DNA of 64,000 nucleotides, taken from contig JBJBEO010000001.1 of NCBI GenBank assembly GCA_047284725.1, forward strand, positions 2,136,203 through 2,200,202. The letters run 5' to 3'. How positions within the stretch are numbered: position 1 is the stretch's first letter; each line of letters opens with the position of its first letter. The notes beneath the pieces were generated by a model. The model saw only the letters and a list, made by a program, of their open reading frames with translations. It did no database searches and was not told where the DNA came from. Shown piece by piece: positions 39,174 through 46,234 of the stretch. Made by a program: the position numbers and the translations under genes. This DNA comes from Synechococcus sp. GTDB lineage: Bacteria > Cyanobacteriota > Cyanobacteriia > PCC-6307 > Cyanobiaceae.

Positions 39174-39314
39174 ATGGAAAGTTCCTCACCAGCCCTGTCT
39201 GTTGCGATCGCCGTGCTTGCTGTGCTGCTGGGCCTAACCGGGTTCGGCGTGTACACCGCCTTTGGGCCTCCCTCCAAACAGCTCGACGATCCGTTTGATG
39301 ATCACGACGACTGA
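39174..39314 (+). CDS. psbN: PSII assembly factor PsbN
   Basis: TM segment plus [20 protein letters not shown]; divergent from psbH. Confidence 0.96.
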
Positions 39315-42298
39315 GTCCGGTCCGCGTCAGAGACAAGCTCAACCTCAGTGAGCTCACCTGGCCTGAAGGTAATGGCCTCAACCAGCTCCCCCCCACAACG
39401 CCGTAGATGCCATCCCTGGGGCCGCCAGATCTGGCGGCGTGCACCTGGATTGAGCAAGCGCATGCGCAGGCACTGGTCGCTTCCCGATCCAGCCTGTTGC
39501 GTTTCAAGGGCCTTGACCGCCACTGGCACCAGTCCGACAGGAAGCGGTGGCATCAGCTGAGTGGGTTCCTGCAGGGATGCGGGCCTGAACCACCCGGACT
39601 CGCGAAAGCCAAGAGCTGCCTGGGGCACTCCGGCTCGGCACCATCCCTCAGGAATCGGCATCAGGGCCAGGCGGTGACGATGCCAACCGCGGTCAGCCTT
39701 GGGATCAGGCCAGGTGGGGCCGCGCAAGAGCGAAACCCCCAGGCGTGCTTCATCGGCATCCACCCCCTGAGGGCCATCAAGCAACAGTGCCAAACCAGCC
39801 CCTGGAGCTGCAGCAGTGCTGGCACACCAGGAGATCACAGGGACTTCCCAGCGCACCTTCTCCCCAGGGGTGAACGTCCGCACCGGTCGTTCAATCACCC
39901 CACCGCTTGTGTCGGCTGCCACACGCACAGCAGGCTGGGCAAGGGGCAGCTCCAAGCGAAGCACCTCATGGGTCTGCCGCCACTCCACGCTGCAGACCAG
40001 TTCCAACCAAGGCGTATCGGCGCGCAGCTGGCAATCAAGACGAAGTCGGCTGGCGCCGGCACGAGCCCGCAAACACACTCGAGCCAGCAAAGGGCCGCTC
40101 TCCACAAGCTCATAGCCCGCAGGATCCCAGGAAACGGGCAAAGGATGGTCGCGGTAGTCGGCCGCCAGATCCCAGGCATCCCAGAACTCGCCCTGATCTC
40201 GGAACCGGCGCAGAGCCATCGCCCCTTGTAGTTGCGAAACCCCATCCGAATTCCAGAGTTGACGCAGCCCATCAGCCCCCAGATCCGCCGTGAGATGGCC
40301 GTTGGAAAGCCGTACGCCGTCTGCGGTCCTCTCCACCTGCACAGACCTACGCACCGGAGGCAAGACAGCGTTGGGCTCCGCATCAACCTTGCGCTCAAGC
40401 GGCCATGCCATCACCCCCGCGTGCTGGGGCAGCTGCACCCAGACACCACCGGAAGGGGCGGACTGGGTGGGTAAGCACTGGCCGGCGGCCCACCACTGCC
40501 CCGCTGGCAATCGCAGCAAAGGCGACCAATGGGCGAGAGGCTGGAGGCCCACAAAGCACCAGTGATCCGCCGCATCCATCGAACCGAGCAGCTGCTGCAA
40601 GGCCTGATCCCGCAGGCTCGCCGCCTGGCGACGCCCCTGCCTCCACTGCGGCTCCGCCTGATCAAACACCTCCGGAATCGACGTGCCAGGCAGGATGTCG
40701 TGAAATTGTTGAAACAGCAAAGGCCGCCAATCGGCCACCGCCTCTGGCAGCACCTCCCGGCGCAGGCACAACAGCGCCGCCGTCAGATCAGCCTCCCGCA
40801 GCAGTCGCTCAAGGCTGCGGTTGTGTCGCTTCTGATCTGGGCGACTGGTGGCACAGCCCCGATGCAGATCGAGATACAGCTCATCGCGCCACACCGGCAG
40901 ATCAGAGGCGGCGGATTCCAGTGAGGCGAGATAAGCGCGCACCGTTGTGGACTGGCGCGGCACCACCTGAGGATGCCCCTGCCAGAGCTGCAACTGCTCG
41001 AGCATTTCCGCCGTCGGGCCACCACCGTGATCACCGACTCCTGGCGTCCATAACGCCTGATCGAGGCCCGTGCGCTGCCGAAAGCTCCGTTGCTCCGCCT
41101 GCATCGCTCTCGGATCCGCATCCGTGCCGATGGGAGGCAACATCAGCGCCATCACCTCAGCACCACCACGACTGCGCCAGCGAAAGAGGCGATGGGGGAA
41201 GGGTGCCGAGGCGTTCCAGGCCAGCTTGTGAGTACAGAACCAACGCACCCCCTCTGCCGCCGCCACCGCTGGGACCCCCGCCCCGAACCCGAAACTGTCG
41301 GGCAGCCAGGCCAACGCATGACTCCACTCGGGGAAGGCACGACGGCTGTAGCCCTGACCGAGACCAAATTGCTGCCACAGCGACGCTGTGCTCACCAACA
41401 CGCAATCGGTTTCCACCCATGGGCCATTGATCGGTTCCCAGCGCCCCTCTGCGCTGGCGGCACTGATTCGTTGCCACAGCGCCGGCCGGAACTGCTCCAT
41501 CCATTCATAAAGAGCCGGGGTGGAGTGCGCGAAACGCAACTCAGGGAAACGATCCATCAAATCGAGAACCGAGCGGAAGGTTCGTTCTGCCGCCTGCCAT
41601 GTGTCGGCCACTGGCCACAGCCAGGCCAGATCCAAATGGGCATGACCAACCCAATGCACGCGACCTTGAGGGCTTGAACGTGCCGCCAAGAAGGCCTCCA
41701 CGCTCTCTCTGGCCTCGACGGAGAGTGGATCCAGCACCAACCACGAGTCCGGCAGATCATCAACGGATGGGAGCGCCAGATCAAGAGCGTCTGGCAACAG
41801 CAACCGTTGAGGGTCATCACCGGGGCACAGCGGTTCTCGCACCACCGCACTGGTGATCAAGGCTCCATCGTCATGACACGGGCTGCGCAGCTCCAGCAGG
41901 CAATCAAGCGGTTGACCCTGCTGCCACGACGCAGGCAGGGGCCAACGGCAGCGGGTATCAAACAGATCACCCTCATGCACCAACACCCCATCGACCCAGA
42001 GGCGCACCTGATCCGCCCACCAACTCAGCACCAGACGCTCACGGCCTCCACCAATCAGCCGCCACGGCTCAGGGCAGGGCAGATGGAGGGTCAGGCGCCG
42101 CCAGATCCCACCCCGCGGCCAGGTCAGCAACCCGCGTGCAGCCCAGTCAGGGCGGTGAATCTGCCCCCATCGATCGTGCAGCGCCAACCCTCGCTCCGGG
42201 GCTTCCAGCACCTGCCATCGCGGCAATAAGTCCAGATGCGTGCGACTGCGAAACGTTTCAATCCACTCCGATCGCTGGGCCTGAAGACGGTTCTGCAT
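39302..42298 (-). CDS. Glycoside hydrolase family 38 alpha-mannosidase
   Basis: [34 protein letters not shown] and QFHDILPG motifs; start approximate (must lie clear of psbI). Confidence 0.93.
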
Positions 42299-42359
42299 CG
42301 TGTCTTCCCAACATTGCCCCATAGGATGATGCCGCTGTCCCAGACGCCGGTCGGTCTCC

Positions 42360-42479
42360 ATGCTTGCCCTCAAGATCTCCGTTTACTCGGTCGTCTTCTT
42401 CTTCCTCGGGATCTTCGTGTTCGGCTTCCTGGCTAGCGATCCCAGTCGCACCCCAAGCCGCAAGGATCTGGAAGACTGA
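42360..42479 (+). CDS. psbI: Photosystem II protein I, 39 aa
   Basis: Manual translation [39 protein letters not shown]. Confidence 0.97.
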
Positions 42480-42584: not shown

Positions 42585-45500
42585 TTGCCGGGTCGTTTCG
42601 CCAAACTTCAGCGCCCTGACCTGAGCGAATGCCAGTCGGTTGTCTTGGCTGGAGTTGTGGTGAGCATGAGCATGATTCACATGCTCCACGACAAAGGTGC
42701 CCATGCCGCCCCATTGGGAGGTGATGGATCAACCACGCAGGAACAAAGCAAAGGTCAAGCGCCCCTGGCGATCCAGCTTCAGGCCGATCGTCAGTACTAC
42801 GACGGCGATCTGGATCTGGTCGTTGCCTCCGGCAATGTCAGCGCCCGTATCAATGGCGGTCTGCTGCAGGCCGACAGAATTGAATTTGACACCGAGTTCA
42901 ACACCCTGGCCGCCAGAGGCAGTGTTCGCTTCCGTCGGGGATCTCAGTATTTCCAGGCCAGCAGTCTTCGCTTCAGCCTGATCCACAACGAAGGCGTCTT
43001 GGAAGACGTCTATGGCGTTCTGGATCTCGACAGTGCAGCGATTGACCTGAATCCCGGCAGTGACGTTCGAGGGCCATCCCTCCGTGACAGCAGCCAAGCG
43101 CTGCCGAGCCTGGAGAGTTCTGATCTCGGTTTTCCCACAGCTCAACAGATCGATCTCGAAAGCACCACGGCTGGTCGCATCAGCCTGAATGCTGATGCGA
43201 CCAGCTTCTGGGACCAGACACAAACAGCAGGCCCGGACTGGCTTGTGCCCACTGAGGTCCATGCCGAGTCGACTGAACATCAGTCCATGGCCTGTCCACC
43301 GGTCCTTCCACCAGTGCCCGAATGGCATCCCCATCCGTGGGCAGCAACGGTCTGGGGCGGACAAAGCATTGACTCCAACTTCGGAGACACGTTTTTGTTC
43401 AACGGGCGGATGCGCCCTGAATATCTCGGTGGAGTGACCTTGCAGAAACGGATCTGGAAAGCAGGTCCACTCGCTATTGAAATCGAAGGCAATCTCCTTG
43501 CGCACCATGCCTATCAACAGGCTGGCGGTGAATTCAACCAGTCCGTTCCCTTTGCCGACACCCCTTCCCAGAGCTTCGGCGAAGGCATCGTCGGTCTGGG
43601 TGCTCGCCTCTGGTTGCAGCCATGGCTCAGCTTCGGCGTCGTGGAAGGGGTGAGCTATTTCACCGACAACAGCAACTACGAACGCACCTATCGCGAAAAC
43701 TACGCACAGCTGCTCAACTATCTGGGCTTTGAACTGGAAGCAGCTGTTTCAAAGCAGCTCTCACTGGTGGGTCGTATTCACCACCGCTCCGGGGCTTTTG
43801 GCACCTACAGCGGTGTGCGAGAGGGAAGCAATGCCTACCTCATCGGGGCTCGTTATCGCTGGGGGAGAGATCAGGCCCCTGAACGGCAAGCCGCAATGCC
43901 CCCGCCGCTGGGCTGCCCGGACCCAGACCGCGCCCAGCGCAGAACTGCCAAGAGCCTCAGCGAGGAATTGGATTCAGTCACGTTTGGGGATGGCCAACGC
44001 CCAGCCACAGCCTCCCCATCTGGTCCATCCGAGTCAATCGCCCAAACCAGCGAGTCCAGCCTTTCCCCAGCCGAACAGGAAGCCCTTCGTGACCGTGCCA
44101 TCGCTGCGATCGACCAGAGAATCGGCAGCATCCAGTTCCAGCAGACCCTCACGATTGAGCGGCGCGTCGGAGTCGCTGCAGGGACCCGACGGCAGCAGGA
44201 CACCCGTGAACAAACCATCAGGGAAGAAAATGACTATGGCGGCATGAAGCCCAGTCAGCTCAACGCTCTCGGCAAAACCCAACTCGTCACAGGCGAAATC
44301 AGCCGGTGGCGTGTCCAGGCCTCGCGGATTGAGATCACTCCGGAGGGCTGGTCAGCTGAACGCATGGGCTTCACCAATGACCCCTTTACTCCTGCCCAGA
44401 CCCGTATCGACGCCGAAGGTGTGGTCGCGGTGCAAGAGGCCAACGGCGACCTGCTCATCAAGGCCAAGCGCAACAGGCTGATCGTGGAAGAGCGTCTGCC
44501 GATCAGCGTCAGTCGCAGCCAGCGCATTCAGAAACAAGAAGAAGTGGAAAATCGCTGGGTGCTCGGCATCGACAACGAGGACCGCGACGGCTTCTTTATT
44601 GGTCGCACACTGAAGCCGATCCGGCTGTCGAGCAATTTCCAACTCGACCTGCAACCACAGGTCTTGGTGCAACGCGCGATCGACGGGGAAACCAAGAGCT
44701 ATGTCGCCCCTGGCAGTGCAGTCGACAGTGGCACGGTGACACAACCGATCAGTGCTGCAGACGCGTTCGGTCTGGAGGCTGAACTCTCCGGCCAGGTCTG
44801 GGGATGGAAGACATCACTGAATGCCGACATCAGCAGCCTCGAACCAACCAACATTGCCAACGCCAGCCGTTACTGGGGTGAACTGAAGAATGGATTCACC
44901 ATGCCTTGGCTGGGCAACATCAAAACCCGACTGTTCGGCGCCTATCGCTACCGCACCTGGAATGGCTCGCTTGGCCAGACCGACGTGTATTCAGCCTTTG
45001 GAGGGTTCGCTGAGCAGAAAGGCAACTGGAACTGGGGCCAATTGAGCAATACCTACCTCTGGAGGTTCGGTGTCGGCAACTATCAAGCGGAACGTTTCGA
45101 AAGCGACAACCTGGCTGACCTCTGGCGGGCCAATTTCTATGGATCCTTGAACAGCAGTTACCCGCTGTGGCGAGGTCAATCAGCAGCGCTCACCCCAGAA
45201 GCTGCCTACCGCTATTCCCCTGTCGCCATCGTGCCGGGGCTACGCCTGGACAGCAATATCAACACACTGCTGGCCGCCTATGGCAATGGGACCCGACAGA
45301 ACACCATCTCCCTCAGTGGAGGGCCAACCCTCACACTGGGCACCTTCAGCAAACCCTTCCTCGACTACACCCAGCTCTCGGTGATCGCAGGCGGAACGCT
45401 CAAGCAGGGCTCCAGCCCCTTCGACTTCGATCAAGCGATCGATCTCGGCACCGTGGGCGTAGGTCTCACCCAACAGCTTGCAGGCCCGCTGGTGATCAGT

Positions 45501-45740
45501 GCAGGCGTCGCGGTGAACGCGAACCCCAATTCGAGTTTCTACGGCAGTGTGATCAACTCGAATCTTGAATTGCGCTGGCAACGACGGTCCTACGACTTCG
45601 GCTTCTACTACAACCCCTATGAAGGCATTGGCGGTTTCCGCTTCAGACTCAACGACTTCAATTTCACCGGCACGGGAGTTCCCTTCGTGCCCTACTCACC
45701 GACGACTCTGAACAACGGAATGGGTGAACGGCCCTTCTGA
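42585..45740 (+). CDS. LptD/OstA-like outer-membrane protein (DUF3769 type) with an internal insertion
   Basis: N-terminal OstA-like LQADRQ.YD...A.GNV...LQADRI, C-terminal beta-barrel with D..DRDG.F and RRSY....YNP...GGF.FRLNDF; start uncertain. Confidence 0.82.
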   Translation: MPGRFAKLQRPDLSECQSVVLAGVVVSMSMIHMLHDKGAHAAPLGGDGSTTQEQSKGQAPLAIQLQADRQYYDGDLDLVVASGNVSARINGGLLQADRIEFDTEFNTLAARGSVRFRRGSQYFQASSLRFSLIHNEGVLEDVYGVLDLDSAAIDLNPGSDVRGPSLRDSSQALPSLESSDLGFPTAQQIDLESTTAGRISLNADATSFWDQTQTAGPDWLVPTEVHAESTEHQSMACPPVLPPVPEWHPHPWAATVWGGQSIDSNFGDTFLFNGRMRPEYLGGVTLQKRIWKAGPLAIEIEGNLLAHHAYQQAGGEFNQSVPFADTPSQSFGEGIVGLGARLWLQPWLSFGVVEGVSYFTDNSNYERTYRENYAQLLNYLGFELEAAVSKQLSLVGRIHHRSGAFGTYSGVREGSNAYLIGARYRWGRDQAPERQAAMPPPLGCPDPDRAQRRTAKSLSEELDSVTFGDGQRPATASPSGPSESIAQTSESSLSPAEQEALRDRAIAAIDQRIGSIQFQQTLTIERRVGVAAGTRRQQDTREQTIREENDYGGMKPSQLNALGKTQLVTGEISRWRVQASRIEITPEGWSAERMGFTNDPFTPAQTRIDAEGVVAVQEANGDLLIKAKRNRLIVEERLPISVSRSQRIQKQEEVENRWVLGIDNEDRDGFFIGRTLKPIRLSSNFQLDLQPQVLVQRAIDGETKSYVAPGSAVDSGTVTQPISAADAFGLEAELSGQVWGWKTSLNADISSLEPTNIANASRYWGELKNGFTMPWLGNIKTRLFGAYRYRTWNGSLGQTDVYSAFGGFAEQKGNWNWGQLSNTYLWRFGVGNYQAERFESDNLADLWRANFYGSLNSSYPLWRGQSAALTPEAAYRYSPVAIVPGLRLDSNINTLLAAYGNGTRQNTISLSGGPTLTLGTFSKPFLDYTQLSVIAGGTLKQGSSPFDFDQAIDLGTVGVGLTQQLAGPLVISAGVAVNANPNSSFYGSVINSNLELRWQRRSYDFGFYYNPYEGIGGFRFRLNDFNFTGTGVPFVPYSPTTLNNGMGERPF

Positions 45741-45769: not shown

Positions 45770-46234
45770 TCAGTCCGGACCGCCACCGTAAATCAAATGG
45801 CTACCGGTGAGATCCGAGCCGGCGTACTGCATTCCTTCGGTGAGAACCCCGGGGGCAAGCGCATTGATTACCACCGCCTCACGCAGGTCGGCACGGCGTA
45901 GATCCGTTCCAGTAAGTTCAGCATTGCTCAGTACGGCCCGTTGCAGATTGGCGCCGCCAAGACGGGCACCACTGAGATCAGCCCCTTCAAGATTGGCCTC
46001 CTGCAATTGAGCCCCACGCAGATCGGCGTCACGCAGGTCGACGCCGATCAGATGGGCACCGCGAAGATCCACACCCCGCAGGTCACAGCCTGCGCAAGCA
46101 CCTGTGGCCTGCAACTGCACGGCCGGGACCTGTTCAACAGGAATCCGCTGGCCTCCTCGAACAGGGCCAACAACAGAACACCCGAGTGCGATCACACCCA
46201 ACCAGGACACCCAAGACACACGACAACAGTCCAT
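45770..46234 (-). CDS. Secreted or lumenal pentapeptide-repeat protein
   Basis: Signal peptide, CAGCDL, then A(D/N)L.. repeats. Confidence 0.9.

Follow-up and report, generated by a model that had tools for sequence, protein, structure and literature searches.

A Cysteine-Bracketed, PagL-like Predicted Barrel Inserted in a Picocyanobacterial DUF3769-Type LptD Homologue, with a Candidate Role as a Lipid Esterase

Introduction

Why would a protein of lipopolysaccharide (LPS) export carry a second, smaller β-barrel, and what could such a barrel do there? The question is raised by a gene in a 64,000-nucleotide stretch of the Synechococcus sp. genome (GenBank assembly GCA_047284725.1, contig JBJBEO010000001.1, positions 2,136,203 to 2,200,202), hereafter called the window. 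By family assignment, the gene encodes a picocyanobacterial homologue of the LPS transporter LptD, 1051 residues long, whose large DUF3769 barrel is presumed from that assignment. A first-pass annotation of the window, made from the sequence alone, had proposed that a small barrel resembling the lipid A deacylase PagL, with an H-x-S motif and two flanking cysteines, is inserted in this protein and couples LPS delivery to lipid A remodelling. The present analysis partly supports that interpretation. The segment is predicted to be a separate eight-stranded barrel, it belongs to a widespread unnamed protein family and its nearest known relative is PagL. As to function, the reading we prefer, with a probability of roughly 0.6, is that of an esterase for outer-leaflet lipids, held at the site where LPS exits.

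The Inserted Segment as a Separate Barrel

The observation from which the first-pass annotation started is confirmed by translation. The open reading frame (ORF), which opens with a TTG start codon, has exactly the size given there, and the two Cys codons begin at 43293 and 43914 as described. Positions 43293–43916 translate to 208 residues that start with C-P (Cys237-Pro238) and end with G-C (Cys444), followed by Pro445. The string VGRIHHRSGAFGTYSGVREGSNAYLIGARYRW (...VGRIHHRSG...ARYRW) terminates at W426, that is, at base 43862, and LptD-like sequence resumes with GEISRWRVQASRIEITPEGW...NDPFTP at residues ~570–603. The latter point coincides with the start of the Pfam domain DUF3769, which is the sole Pfam match in the full protein (residues 570–1026, E 1e-136).

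About 365 extra residues lie between the N-terminal LptA/OstA-like part and the DUF3769 part, with the barrel at their centre. AlphaFold2, run on the 208-residue segment with 41 aligned relatives, returned a closed eight-stranded barrel with a mean predicted local distance difference test score (pLDDT) of 89.6 and a predicted template modelling score (pTM) of 0.84; the model is weaker at both segment ends (pLDDT 61 and ~70). The strands comprise segment residues 16–27, 39–57, 60–73, 93–109, 112–123, 140–151, 156–166 and 178–190, equal to residues 252–426 of the protein (segment numbering plus 236 gives protein numbering), and they bear out the alternating β-strands that had been read from the sequence. 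Every strand of the eight has hydrophobic residues on one parity and conserved polar residues on the other, the inward polar core being formed, in segment numbering, by E63, E65, H71, E97, R105, S121, E147, R161, H163, R165 and R187. The presence of this pattern in all eight strands suggests a small barrel embedded in lipid, not a soluble plug.

No other region of the protein is as well conserved as the barrel. Among 29 homologues, mean pairwise identity is 0.70 for the barrel, 0.64 for the N-terminal part, 0.61 for the DUF3769 part and 0.32 and 0.39 for the two linkers. The model describes an independent folding unit, and the earlier claim that the segment forms a closed barrel of its own, outside the large barrel and the jellyroll, is upheld both by this model and by stand-alone secreted homologues that end at the equivalent aromatic residue.

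All 29 aligned full-length homologues possess exactly two cysteines beyond the signal region, 203–209 residues apart, in the conserved contexts A-C-P-P and G-C-P that flank the barrel; both are kept in a distant homologue of 33% identity. Orthologues lacking the insert have no mature Cys. The bracketing of the segment by a conserved Cys pair, noted before from the single sequence, therefore extends to every homologue aligned, and, together with the lack of mature Cys in orthologues without the insert, it indicates that a predicted C237–C444 disulfide probably staples the base of the module on its periplasmic side.

The HHRSG Family

A search of 1.84 billion representative proteins with the segment yielded 364 relatives at E ≤ 0.001, including 31 at E ≤ 1e-30, so the segment is more than a chance occurrence. 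Many of the relatives are 185–260 residues long and have their own signal peptides, and the match stops where these proteins themselves end, at the position of W426. When GTDB species genomes were scanned with an 11-sequence subset of the family alignment, at least 492 loci were found in Thermodesulfobacteriota, Gamma- and Alphaproteobacteria, Planctomycetota, Nitrospirota, Rokubacteria and others. The barrel thus belongs to an unnamed family that is spread over many diderm phyla and consists of small outer-membrane proteins, ~190–220 residues long when they stand alone. The family, here called HHRSG, is defined by a barrel of ~175 residues whose strand 7 carries R-x-H-H-R-S-G and whose strand 8 carries G-x-N, with an aromatic residue at the C-terminus. 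The window segment has all these features and matches the family profile with E 6e-56. The family proteins have no assigned Pfam or NCBIfam family, and an NCBIfam search with the segment and 34 relatives gave no matches.

Within 41 members of the family, H399, H400 and R401 (H163, H164 and R165 of the segment) are invariant, S402 (S166) is conserved in 98% and N416 (N180) in 93%. The R.HHRSG string is carried by 314 of the 328 domains collected, a set whose members are not independent (132 are picocyanobacterial), and H-R-S is kept in 323 of 327 complete domains, the exceptions being HRC, QRS and HRP (twice). The H-x-S motif singled out by the first-pass annotation is thus conserved throughout the family. 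H400, S402 and N416 share the parity that is hydrophobic and faces the lipid, where strands 7 and 8 end on the extracellular side, and are the most conserved outward positions, with strand parity placing H400 and S402 at the top of strand 7 as had been expected of surface-exposed residues. R397, H399 and R401 lie on the inward parity.

Among the neighbours of 29 stand-alone loci, the genes hinting at the cell envelope are only lptF/G, lpxD and some murein or envelope genes. Two related stand-alone loci (L035 and L039) adjoin lptF/G, and a third locus (L081) adjoins lpxD and a gene of the phospholipase D (PLD) family; most of the 29 have no neighbour from LPS transport or lipid A synthesis. Two low-GC, Lys-rich stand-alone relatives from marine metagenomes, P0144 (224 residues) and P0151 (210 residues), are 44–45% identical to the insert and have Cys before and after the barrel, like the fused form. 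A phage origin of these low-GC relatives was considered and rejected, with no matches in 50,697 phage records or IMG/VR; their host was not found among 401 genomes of the window's taxonomic family (best identity 48% for P0151).

Relation to PagL

The catalytic residues of Pseudomonas aeruginosa PagL are numbered His126, Ser128 and Glu140. The enzyme is described as an eight-stranded barrel with a Ser-His-Glu triad and an oxyanion hole with conserved Asn (PMC4402001). A structural search of 48,161 representative chains with the modelled barrel placed PagL (PDB 2erv_B) first, with Z 16.8, a root-mean-square deviation (rmsd) of 1.9 Å and 135 of 146 residues aligned. Re-scoring of the 999 best Foldseek chains also put PagL first (2erv_A, Z 16.7, 139 of 150 aligned). 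PagL and the modelled barrel both have eight strands and a similar size, and the structural matches have an rmsd of 1.9–2.0. In Pfam, 4 of the 41 members match PagL (best E 0.0033, none of them reaching the threshold), and no other family is matched by two or more members; a stand-alone member from a genome with a true PagL shows a weak PagL match as well (E 0.033).

For profile comparison, a search of 101 genomes of one class with PF09411 found PagL in 22 of them, and the 23 canonical genes obtained were aligned. The hhalign comparison of the family with these PagLs gave a probability of 88.2% (E 3e-6, 115 columns), in contrast to 0.5% for the reversed PagL profile and 12% for an OmpW alignment of 18 sequences. 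It pairs R397, H400, S402, A404, G414, N416 and Y424 with the same residues of PagL, and W426 with the final Phe of PagL. Thus, H-x-S on strand 7, G-x-N on strand 8 and the C-terminal Y-x-aromatic fall in aligned columns, and in both barrels these polar residues face the lipid near the outer leaflet, in the window barrel by strand parity. N416, the proposed third residue of the triad, aligns with the Asn of G-x-N, the residue that most of the 23 PagLs have at this position; by counting offsets, it may correspond to Glu140 of the P. aeruginosa enzyme. The two barrels differ in the spacing from Ser to Asn, 14 in the window barrel and 12 in PagL, in an invariant inward R-x-H-x-R motif that the window barrel adds, and in occurrence, since the HHRSG family is widely distributed on its own and co-occurs with PagL.

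A number of results weigh against a PagL-type enzyme, or against an enzyme at all. In the structural ranking, OprF-N (Z 15.9), a designed barrel (15.6) and OmpA (15.2) tie with PagL or follow it closely, and a Foldseek search of the PDB returned generic OmpA/OmpX/Ail/OmpW barrels (E 1e-5 to 1e-3, template modelling score ~0.45–0.5) with PagL outside the top 50. The window segment has no match to the Pfam PagL model (PF09411) at E ≤ 1 or at E ≤ 10, and the PagL scores of its relatives, 16.8 bits in one search, stay below the Pfam gathering threshold of 23 bits. A PDB sequence search with the family profile gave no matches at E ≤ 10, PagL included. PagL and OmpW profiles align to each other over their C-terminal halves with 96.9% probability (E 1.7e-10). 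The two Asn that are invariant in the 23-PagL alignment, N154 directly after the Ser (H-x-S-N) and N161 in a P-N pair, are aligned with G403 and R412 here. Among the 101 genomes, the family occurs in 14, PagL in 22 and both in 3, about as independence predicts. The family proteins are all annotated as hypothetical proteins, 116 neighbours of the 29 stand-alone loci show heterogeneous gene contexts with no conserved operon, and the orientation of H400 and S402 comes from strand parity, not from coordinates. A distant DUF3769 protein from a metagenome (P0159/P0296, 908 residues), with 33% identity in the insert, retains the Cys-bracketed barrel, with a motif that reads Q-H-R-P where the family has H-H-R-S and with N416 replaced by Ser; this copy may be inactive as an enzyme.

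Since PagL and OmpW reach 96.9%, an hhalign probability is unspecific among eight-stranded barrel families, and profile scores between small outer-membrane barrel families need family-specific controls. The specific signal in the alignment is the column match of conserved polar residues. The co-occurrence counts mean that the HHRSG family and PagL are not simple substitutes for each other. PagL is the nearest known relative of the barrel, and we call the domain PagL-like without filing it as PagL, because the two conserved Asn of PagL are not kept. The PagL likeness claimed by the first-pass annotation therefore stands as regards the top structural match, the profile alignment and the aligned H-x-S, and falls short at the Pfam threshold, at the two replaced Asn and in the structural tie with non-enzymatic eight-stranded barrels.

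The Host Protein as an LptD Homologue

DUF3769 is equated with cyanobacterial LptD in a cyanobacterial core-genome paper (PMC4365693). The language-model neighbours of the DUF3769 part are LptD-family clusters (0.90–0.95). A search for full-length homologues gave 740 proteins at E ≤ 0.001 among 8000 scored candidates; among the best 120 of these, the full-length relatives come from Synechococcus and Prochlorococcus and show 62–99% identity over 94–100% of the length. They are named either "DUF3769 domain-containing protein" or "LPS-assembly protein LptD". DUF3769 was found in 79 of 201 genomes sampled from the phylum, with one copy per cyanobacterial genome. Seventy-eight of the 79 belong to the cyanobacterial class (families f1–f23), where every genome sampled has it, and the remaining one is a marginal match (22 bits) in family f30. 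Relatives of LptD and DUF3769 in plants are TGD4 and LPTD1.

The first-pass annotation had called the N-terminal part OstA-like, and the matches point weakly in that direction: the LptA model TIGR03002 reached E 0.087, and a family-profile search of the PDB returned only LptA (8bss, 7zed) and LptD (7omm, query residues 54–150) at E 0.14–0.47. The Pfam model PF03968 was not significant (E 6.6–7.8). The likeness of the window protein to LptD thus consists of the DUF3769 match and this weakly LptA/LptD-like stretch. The protein differs in its ~365 extra residues compared with orthologues of 666–699 residues, and in the genome in which it occurs: the canonical LptD C-terminal model PF04453 had no matches there at E ≤ 10, and LptE (PF04390) was not found at E ≤ 1 in this 99.98%-complete genome, although a divergent LptE could escape such a search. 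In Escherichia coli LptD, disulfides connect the N-domain with the barrel, whereas the sole Cys pair of the window protein flanks the insert.

Three DUF3769 proteins of other cyanobacteria (L171, L172 and L008) reach 900–1100 residues with no barrel insert. Their length is due to Pro/Ser/Asp-rich low-complexity N-terminal extensions of 300–500 residues that precede the jellyroll-like part.

Fused, Split and Absent Forms

Searches with the single sequence and the family profile found the inserted segment in just three of the 201 phylum genomes, all of them from the window's own taxonomic family. Within that family, the profile detects the segment in 100 of 151 genomes, 70 of 98 high-quality genomes and 40 of 64 genera. 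It is present in single copy, within open frames of ~950–1230 residues wherever the contig is long enough. The suggestion that the architecture is common among picocyanobacteria under the DUF3769 label was accordingly correct. The orthologues without the segment (666–699 residues) occur in small low-GC genomes, and in them the D-V-Y-G and F-T-N-D-P motifs are 90 residues apart, versus 455 in the window protein.

One genome (G335) has the two parts in separate genes. Its DUF3769 gene encodes ~840 residues without a barrel (L173, G335:C22:141300-144700), and the protein keeps A-C-P and G-C-P, with 31 residues between them, at the insert site (residues 212 and 244). The barrel is encoded separately as a secreted protein of ~320 residues with an acidic low-complexity tail (L147:3634-4599, minus strand), and its gene is convergent with an adjoining GDSL-lipase gene. 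A quick maximum likelihood (ML) tree of 97 domains unites the 14 fused copies, the G335 stand-alone type and the low-GC type (P0144, P0151) in a single clade (Shimodaira–Hasegawa-like approximate likelihood ratio test, SH-aLRT, 99), and the 62 other bacterial members fall outside it. The tree gives no order for fusion and fission.

Proposed Function and Alternatives

Synechococcus lipid A is tri- and tetra-acylated. The window genome contains LpxC and therefore makes lipid A; a family search found no LpxL/M-type acyltransferase in it, and neither PagL (PF09411) nor OMPLA (PF02253) was found in the same near-complete genome. For the strains WH8102 and CC9311, lipid A without phosphate and with four acyl chains is described in PMC4515613.

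In the proposed mechanism, a lineage-specific module of ~365 residues (linker, Cys, eight-stranded barrel, Cys, linker) would have been spliced into the periplasmic part of the LptD homologue. As both termini of an eight-stranded barrel should be periplasmic, such a module would fit between two periplasmic segments. The small barrel would lie next to the large LptD barrel in the outer membrane, held by a linker on either side, and H400, S402 and N416 would form a polar patch where its strands 7 and 8 approach the outer leaflet, on a surface that is otherwise hydrophobic and turned to the lipid. The active site of OMPLA, which is also on the lipid-facing surface, has a geometry similar to that of PagL. 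The domain would then cleave an acyl chain from its ester linkage in a lipid of the outer leaflet. As to the specific reaction, the first guess, and a tentative one, is lipid A O-deacylation. The broadest form of the proposal deserves the same caution: HHRSG barrels may be unrecognised, phylum-spanning outer-membrane lipid esterases, one of which has been built into the LPS translocon in marine and freshwater picocyanobacteria, so that lipid A would be O-deacylated while leaving LptD.

An esterase with another substrate is possible, if rather unlikely, namely an OMPLA-like housekeeping lipase that clears stray glycerolipids (phospho- or galactolipids) from the outer leaflet at the site of LPS insertion and so preserves asymmetry. 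The proposed His-Ser-Asn triad is that of OMPLA, in which H-x-S and an Asn of the neighbouring strand likewise lie on the barrel exterior at the level of the outer leaflet. Such a lipase also agrees with the lack of detected OMPLA and PagL in the genome, the occurrence of the family independently of PagL in other bacteria, the missing lipid A-specific Asn of PagL and the GDSL lipase gene next to the stand-alone copy of G335. However, OMPLA (PldA) is a 12-stranded, calcium-dependent dimer activated by dimerisation, no sequence or structural match to it was seen, and the nearest fold and profile of the window barrel are those of PagL. The fusion to the LPS translocon, moreover, argues for LPS as the shared substrate, as has been argued for PagP-LptD.

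Less likely again is a non-enzymatic role, in which the barrel would serve the LptD homologue as a membrane anchor or assembly aid, possibly offsetting the missing LptE, and the HHRSG motif would be conserved for folding or lipid binding. The negative LptE search agrees with this, as do the inward R397, H399 and R401 of the conserved polar core, the P0159/P0296 copy, which lost Ser and N416 and kept the barrel and the Cys pair, and the structural scores of plain eight-stranded barrels, nearly as high as that of PagL. Yet H400, S402 and N416 are polar, lipid-facing and the most conserved outward positions all the same, which folding alone hardly explains. In addition, most family members stand alone in organisms with ordinary LptD/LptE systems, and the barrel is absent from 51 of the 151 picocyanobacterial genomes. 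That the segment supplies extra strands to the large DUF3769 barrel or to the jellyroll is close to refuted: the barrel was modelled from the isolated segment and not from the full-length protein, which leaves this reading some room, but the isolated segment is predicted with high confidence as a closed barrel, hundreds of homologues stand alone at ~190–220 residues, orthologues of 666–699 residues bridge the same flanking motifs with ~90 residues in place of 455, and in one genome the barrel has its own gene.

Precedent and Significance

The nearest precedent for a small barrel joined to LptD is found among the multi-barrel outer-membrane proteins described by Solan et al. (PNAS 2021, PMC8346858). 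They include PagP-LptD fusions (8-26), represented by 19 Rhodocyclaceae proteins, in which the barrels are joined by a linker of >100 residues predicted to be disordered; the authors put forward an efficiency argument based on the shared LPS substrate. The article mentions "a few" multi-barrel architectures in Cyanobacteria, and the words "Cyanobacteria", "Synechococcus" and "DUF3769" are absent from the text portion of its supplement. PagP-LptD and the window protein both combine, in one chain, an eight-stranded barrel of a lipid A-modifying type, an LptD-family barrel (in the window protein presumed from its family) and a long linker. The beta-proteobacterial fusion uses the acyltransferase PagP, placed N-terminally, with canonical PF04453 LptD, whereas the window protein has a PagL-like barrel of an unnamed family, inserted and bracketed by Cys, in a DUF3769-type LptD found in most picocyanobacteria sampled.

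In the literature searched on DUF3769, on LptD in connection with cyanobacteria or PagL and on multi-barrel proteins, no account of the window protein was found. Already known, therefore, is the PagP-LptD fusion; new are the fusion of a different, unnamed family of enzyme-like barrels to LptD, the insertion bracketed by Cys rather than appended, the other LptD lineage in which it occurs and its fixation across most picocyanobacteria.

Few phototrophs are as abundant as picocyanobacteria. It is at the outer membrane that these cells meet phages, grazers and nutrients, yet their LPS machinery is known almost only via homology. If the esterase reading is true, an essential transporter would carry its own lipid-remodelling enzyme, as PagP-LptD does independently, though with a far wider distribution than that first case, and hundreds of "hypothetical" small outer-membrane proteins from many phyla would gain a testable function. 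If, more specifically, lipid A is O-deacylated as it leaves LptD, Synechococcus would by default present deacylated LPS at its surface, and streamlined Prochlorococcus, in losing the module, would have altered its surface lipid chemistry, with effects on recognition by phages and grazers. The fused, split and absent forms, side by side in one taxonomic family, represent a natural experiment on the role of the module. The Cys-bracketed insertion also raises a question of assembly, namely how the BAM machinery builds two barrels from one chain.

Gene Layout and Neighbourhood

The features of the gene are collected in Table 1. Linker 2 holds one conserved probable helix, LSPxEQExLR..IDQRI in the consensus of full-length homologues.

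Table 1. Features of the DUF3769-type LptD homologue gene, in window coordinates.
Feature	Position	Strand	Basis
1051-residue DUF3769-type LptD homologue with inserted barrel	42585..45740	+	ORF list, translation, Pfam DUF3769 E 1e-136
Probable Sec signal peptide, residues 1–41	42585..42707	+	Judged by eye from translation
N-terminal LptA/OstA-like (β-jellyroll-like) part, residues ~54–150	42744..43034	+	Weak matches
Linker 1, residues 151–236, poorly conserved	43035..43292	+	Mean pairwise identity 0.32, 29 homologues
Cys237 (C-P-P), first of the flanking Cys pair	43293..43295	+	Invariant in 29/29
Predicted eight-stranded transmembrane β-barrel, residues 252–426, HHRSG family, PagL-like	43338..43862	+	AlphaFold2, structure match, hhalign, parity
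H399-H400-R401-S402 motif on strand 7, H400 and S402 being the putative catalytic pair	43779..43790	+	Family alignment, PagL alignment
N416, strand 8, proposed third active-site residue	43830..43832	+	Alignment, outward parity
Cys444 (G-C-P), second of the flanking Cys pair	43914..43916	+	29/29 homologues
Linker 2, residues 445–569, mostly poorly conserved	43917..44291	+	Mean pairwise identity 0.39
DUF3769 part, residues 570–1026, presumed large LptD-type barrel	44292..45662	+	Pfam PF12600 E 1e-136

Both adjoining genes are on the minus strand and have no evident tie to LPS transport. The first (39302–42373) encodes a 1023-residue protein of the glycoside hydrolase family 38 (GH38) alpha-mannosidase family, and the second (45770–46234) a pentapeptide-repeat protein of 154 residues. 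Further unrelated neighbours of the DUF3769 gene are LeuD and LeuC.

The signal peptide, read by eye, has a basic n-region, a hydrophobic core and A-H-A preceding the cut. The closest homologue among the matches listed (P0002, 99% identical, 1024 residues) is called from an ATG 27 codons downstream (window 42585–42665). That start would strip off most of the signal peptide, and the upstream TTG yields a normal Sec-type leader.

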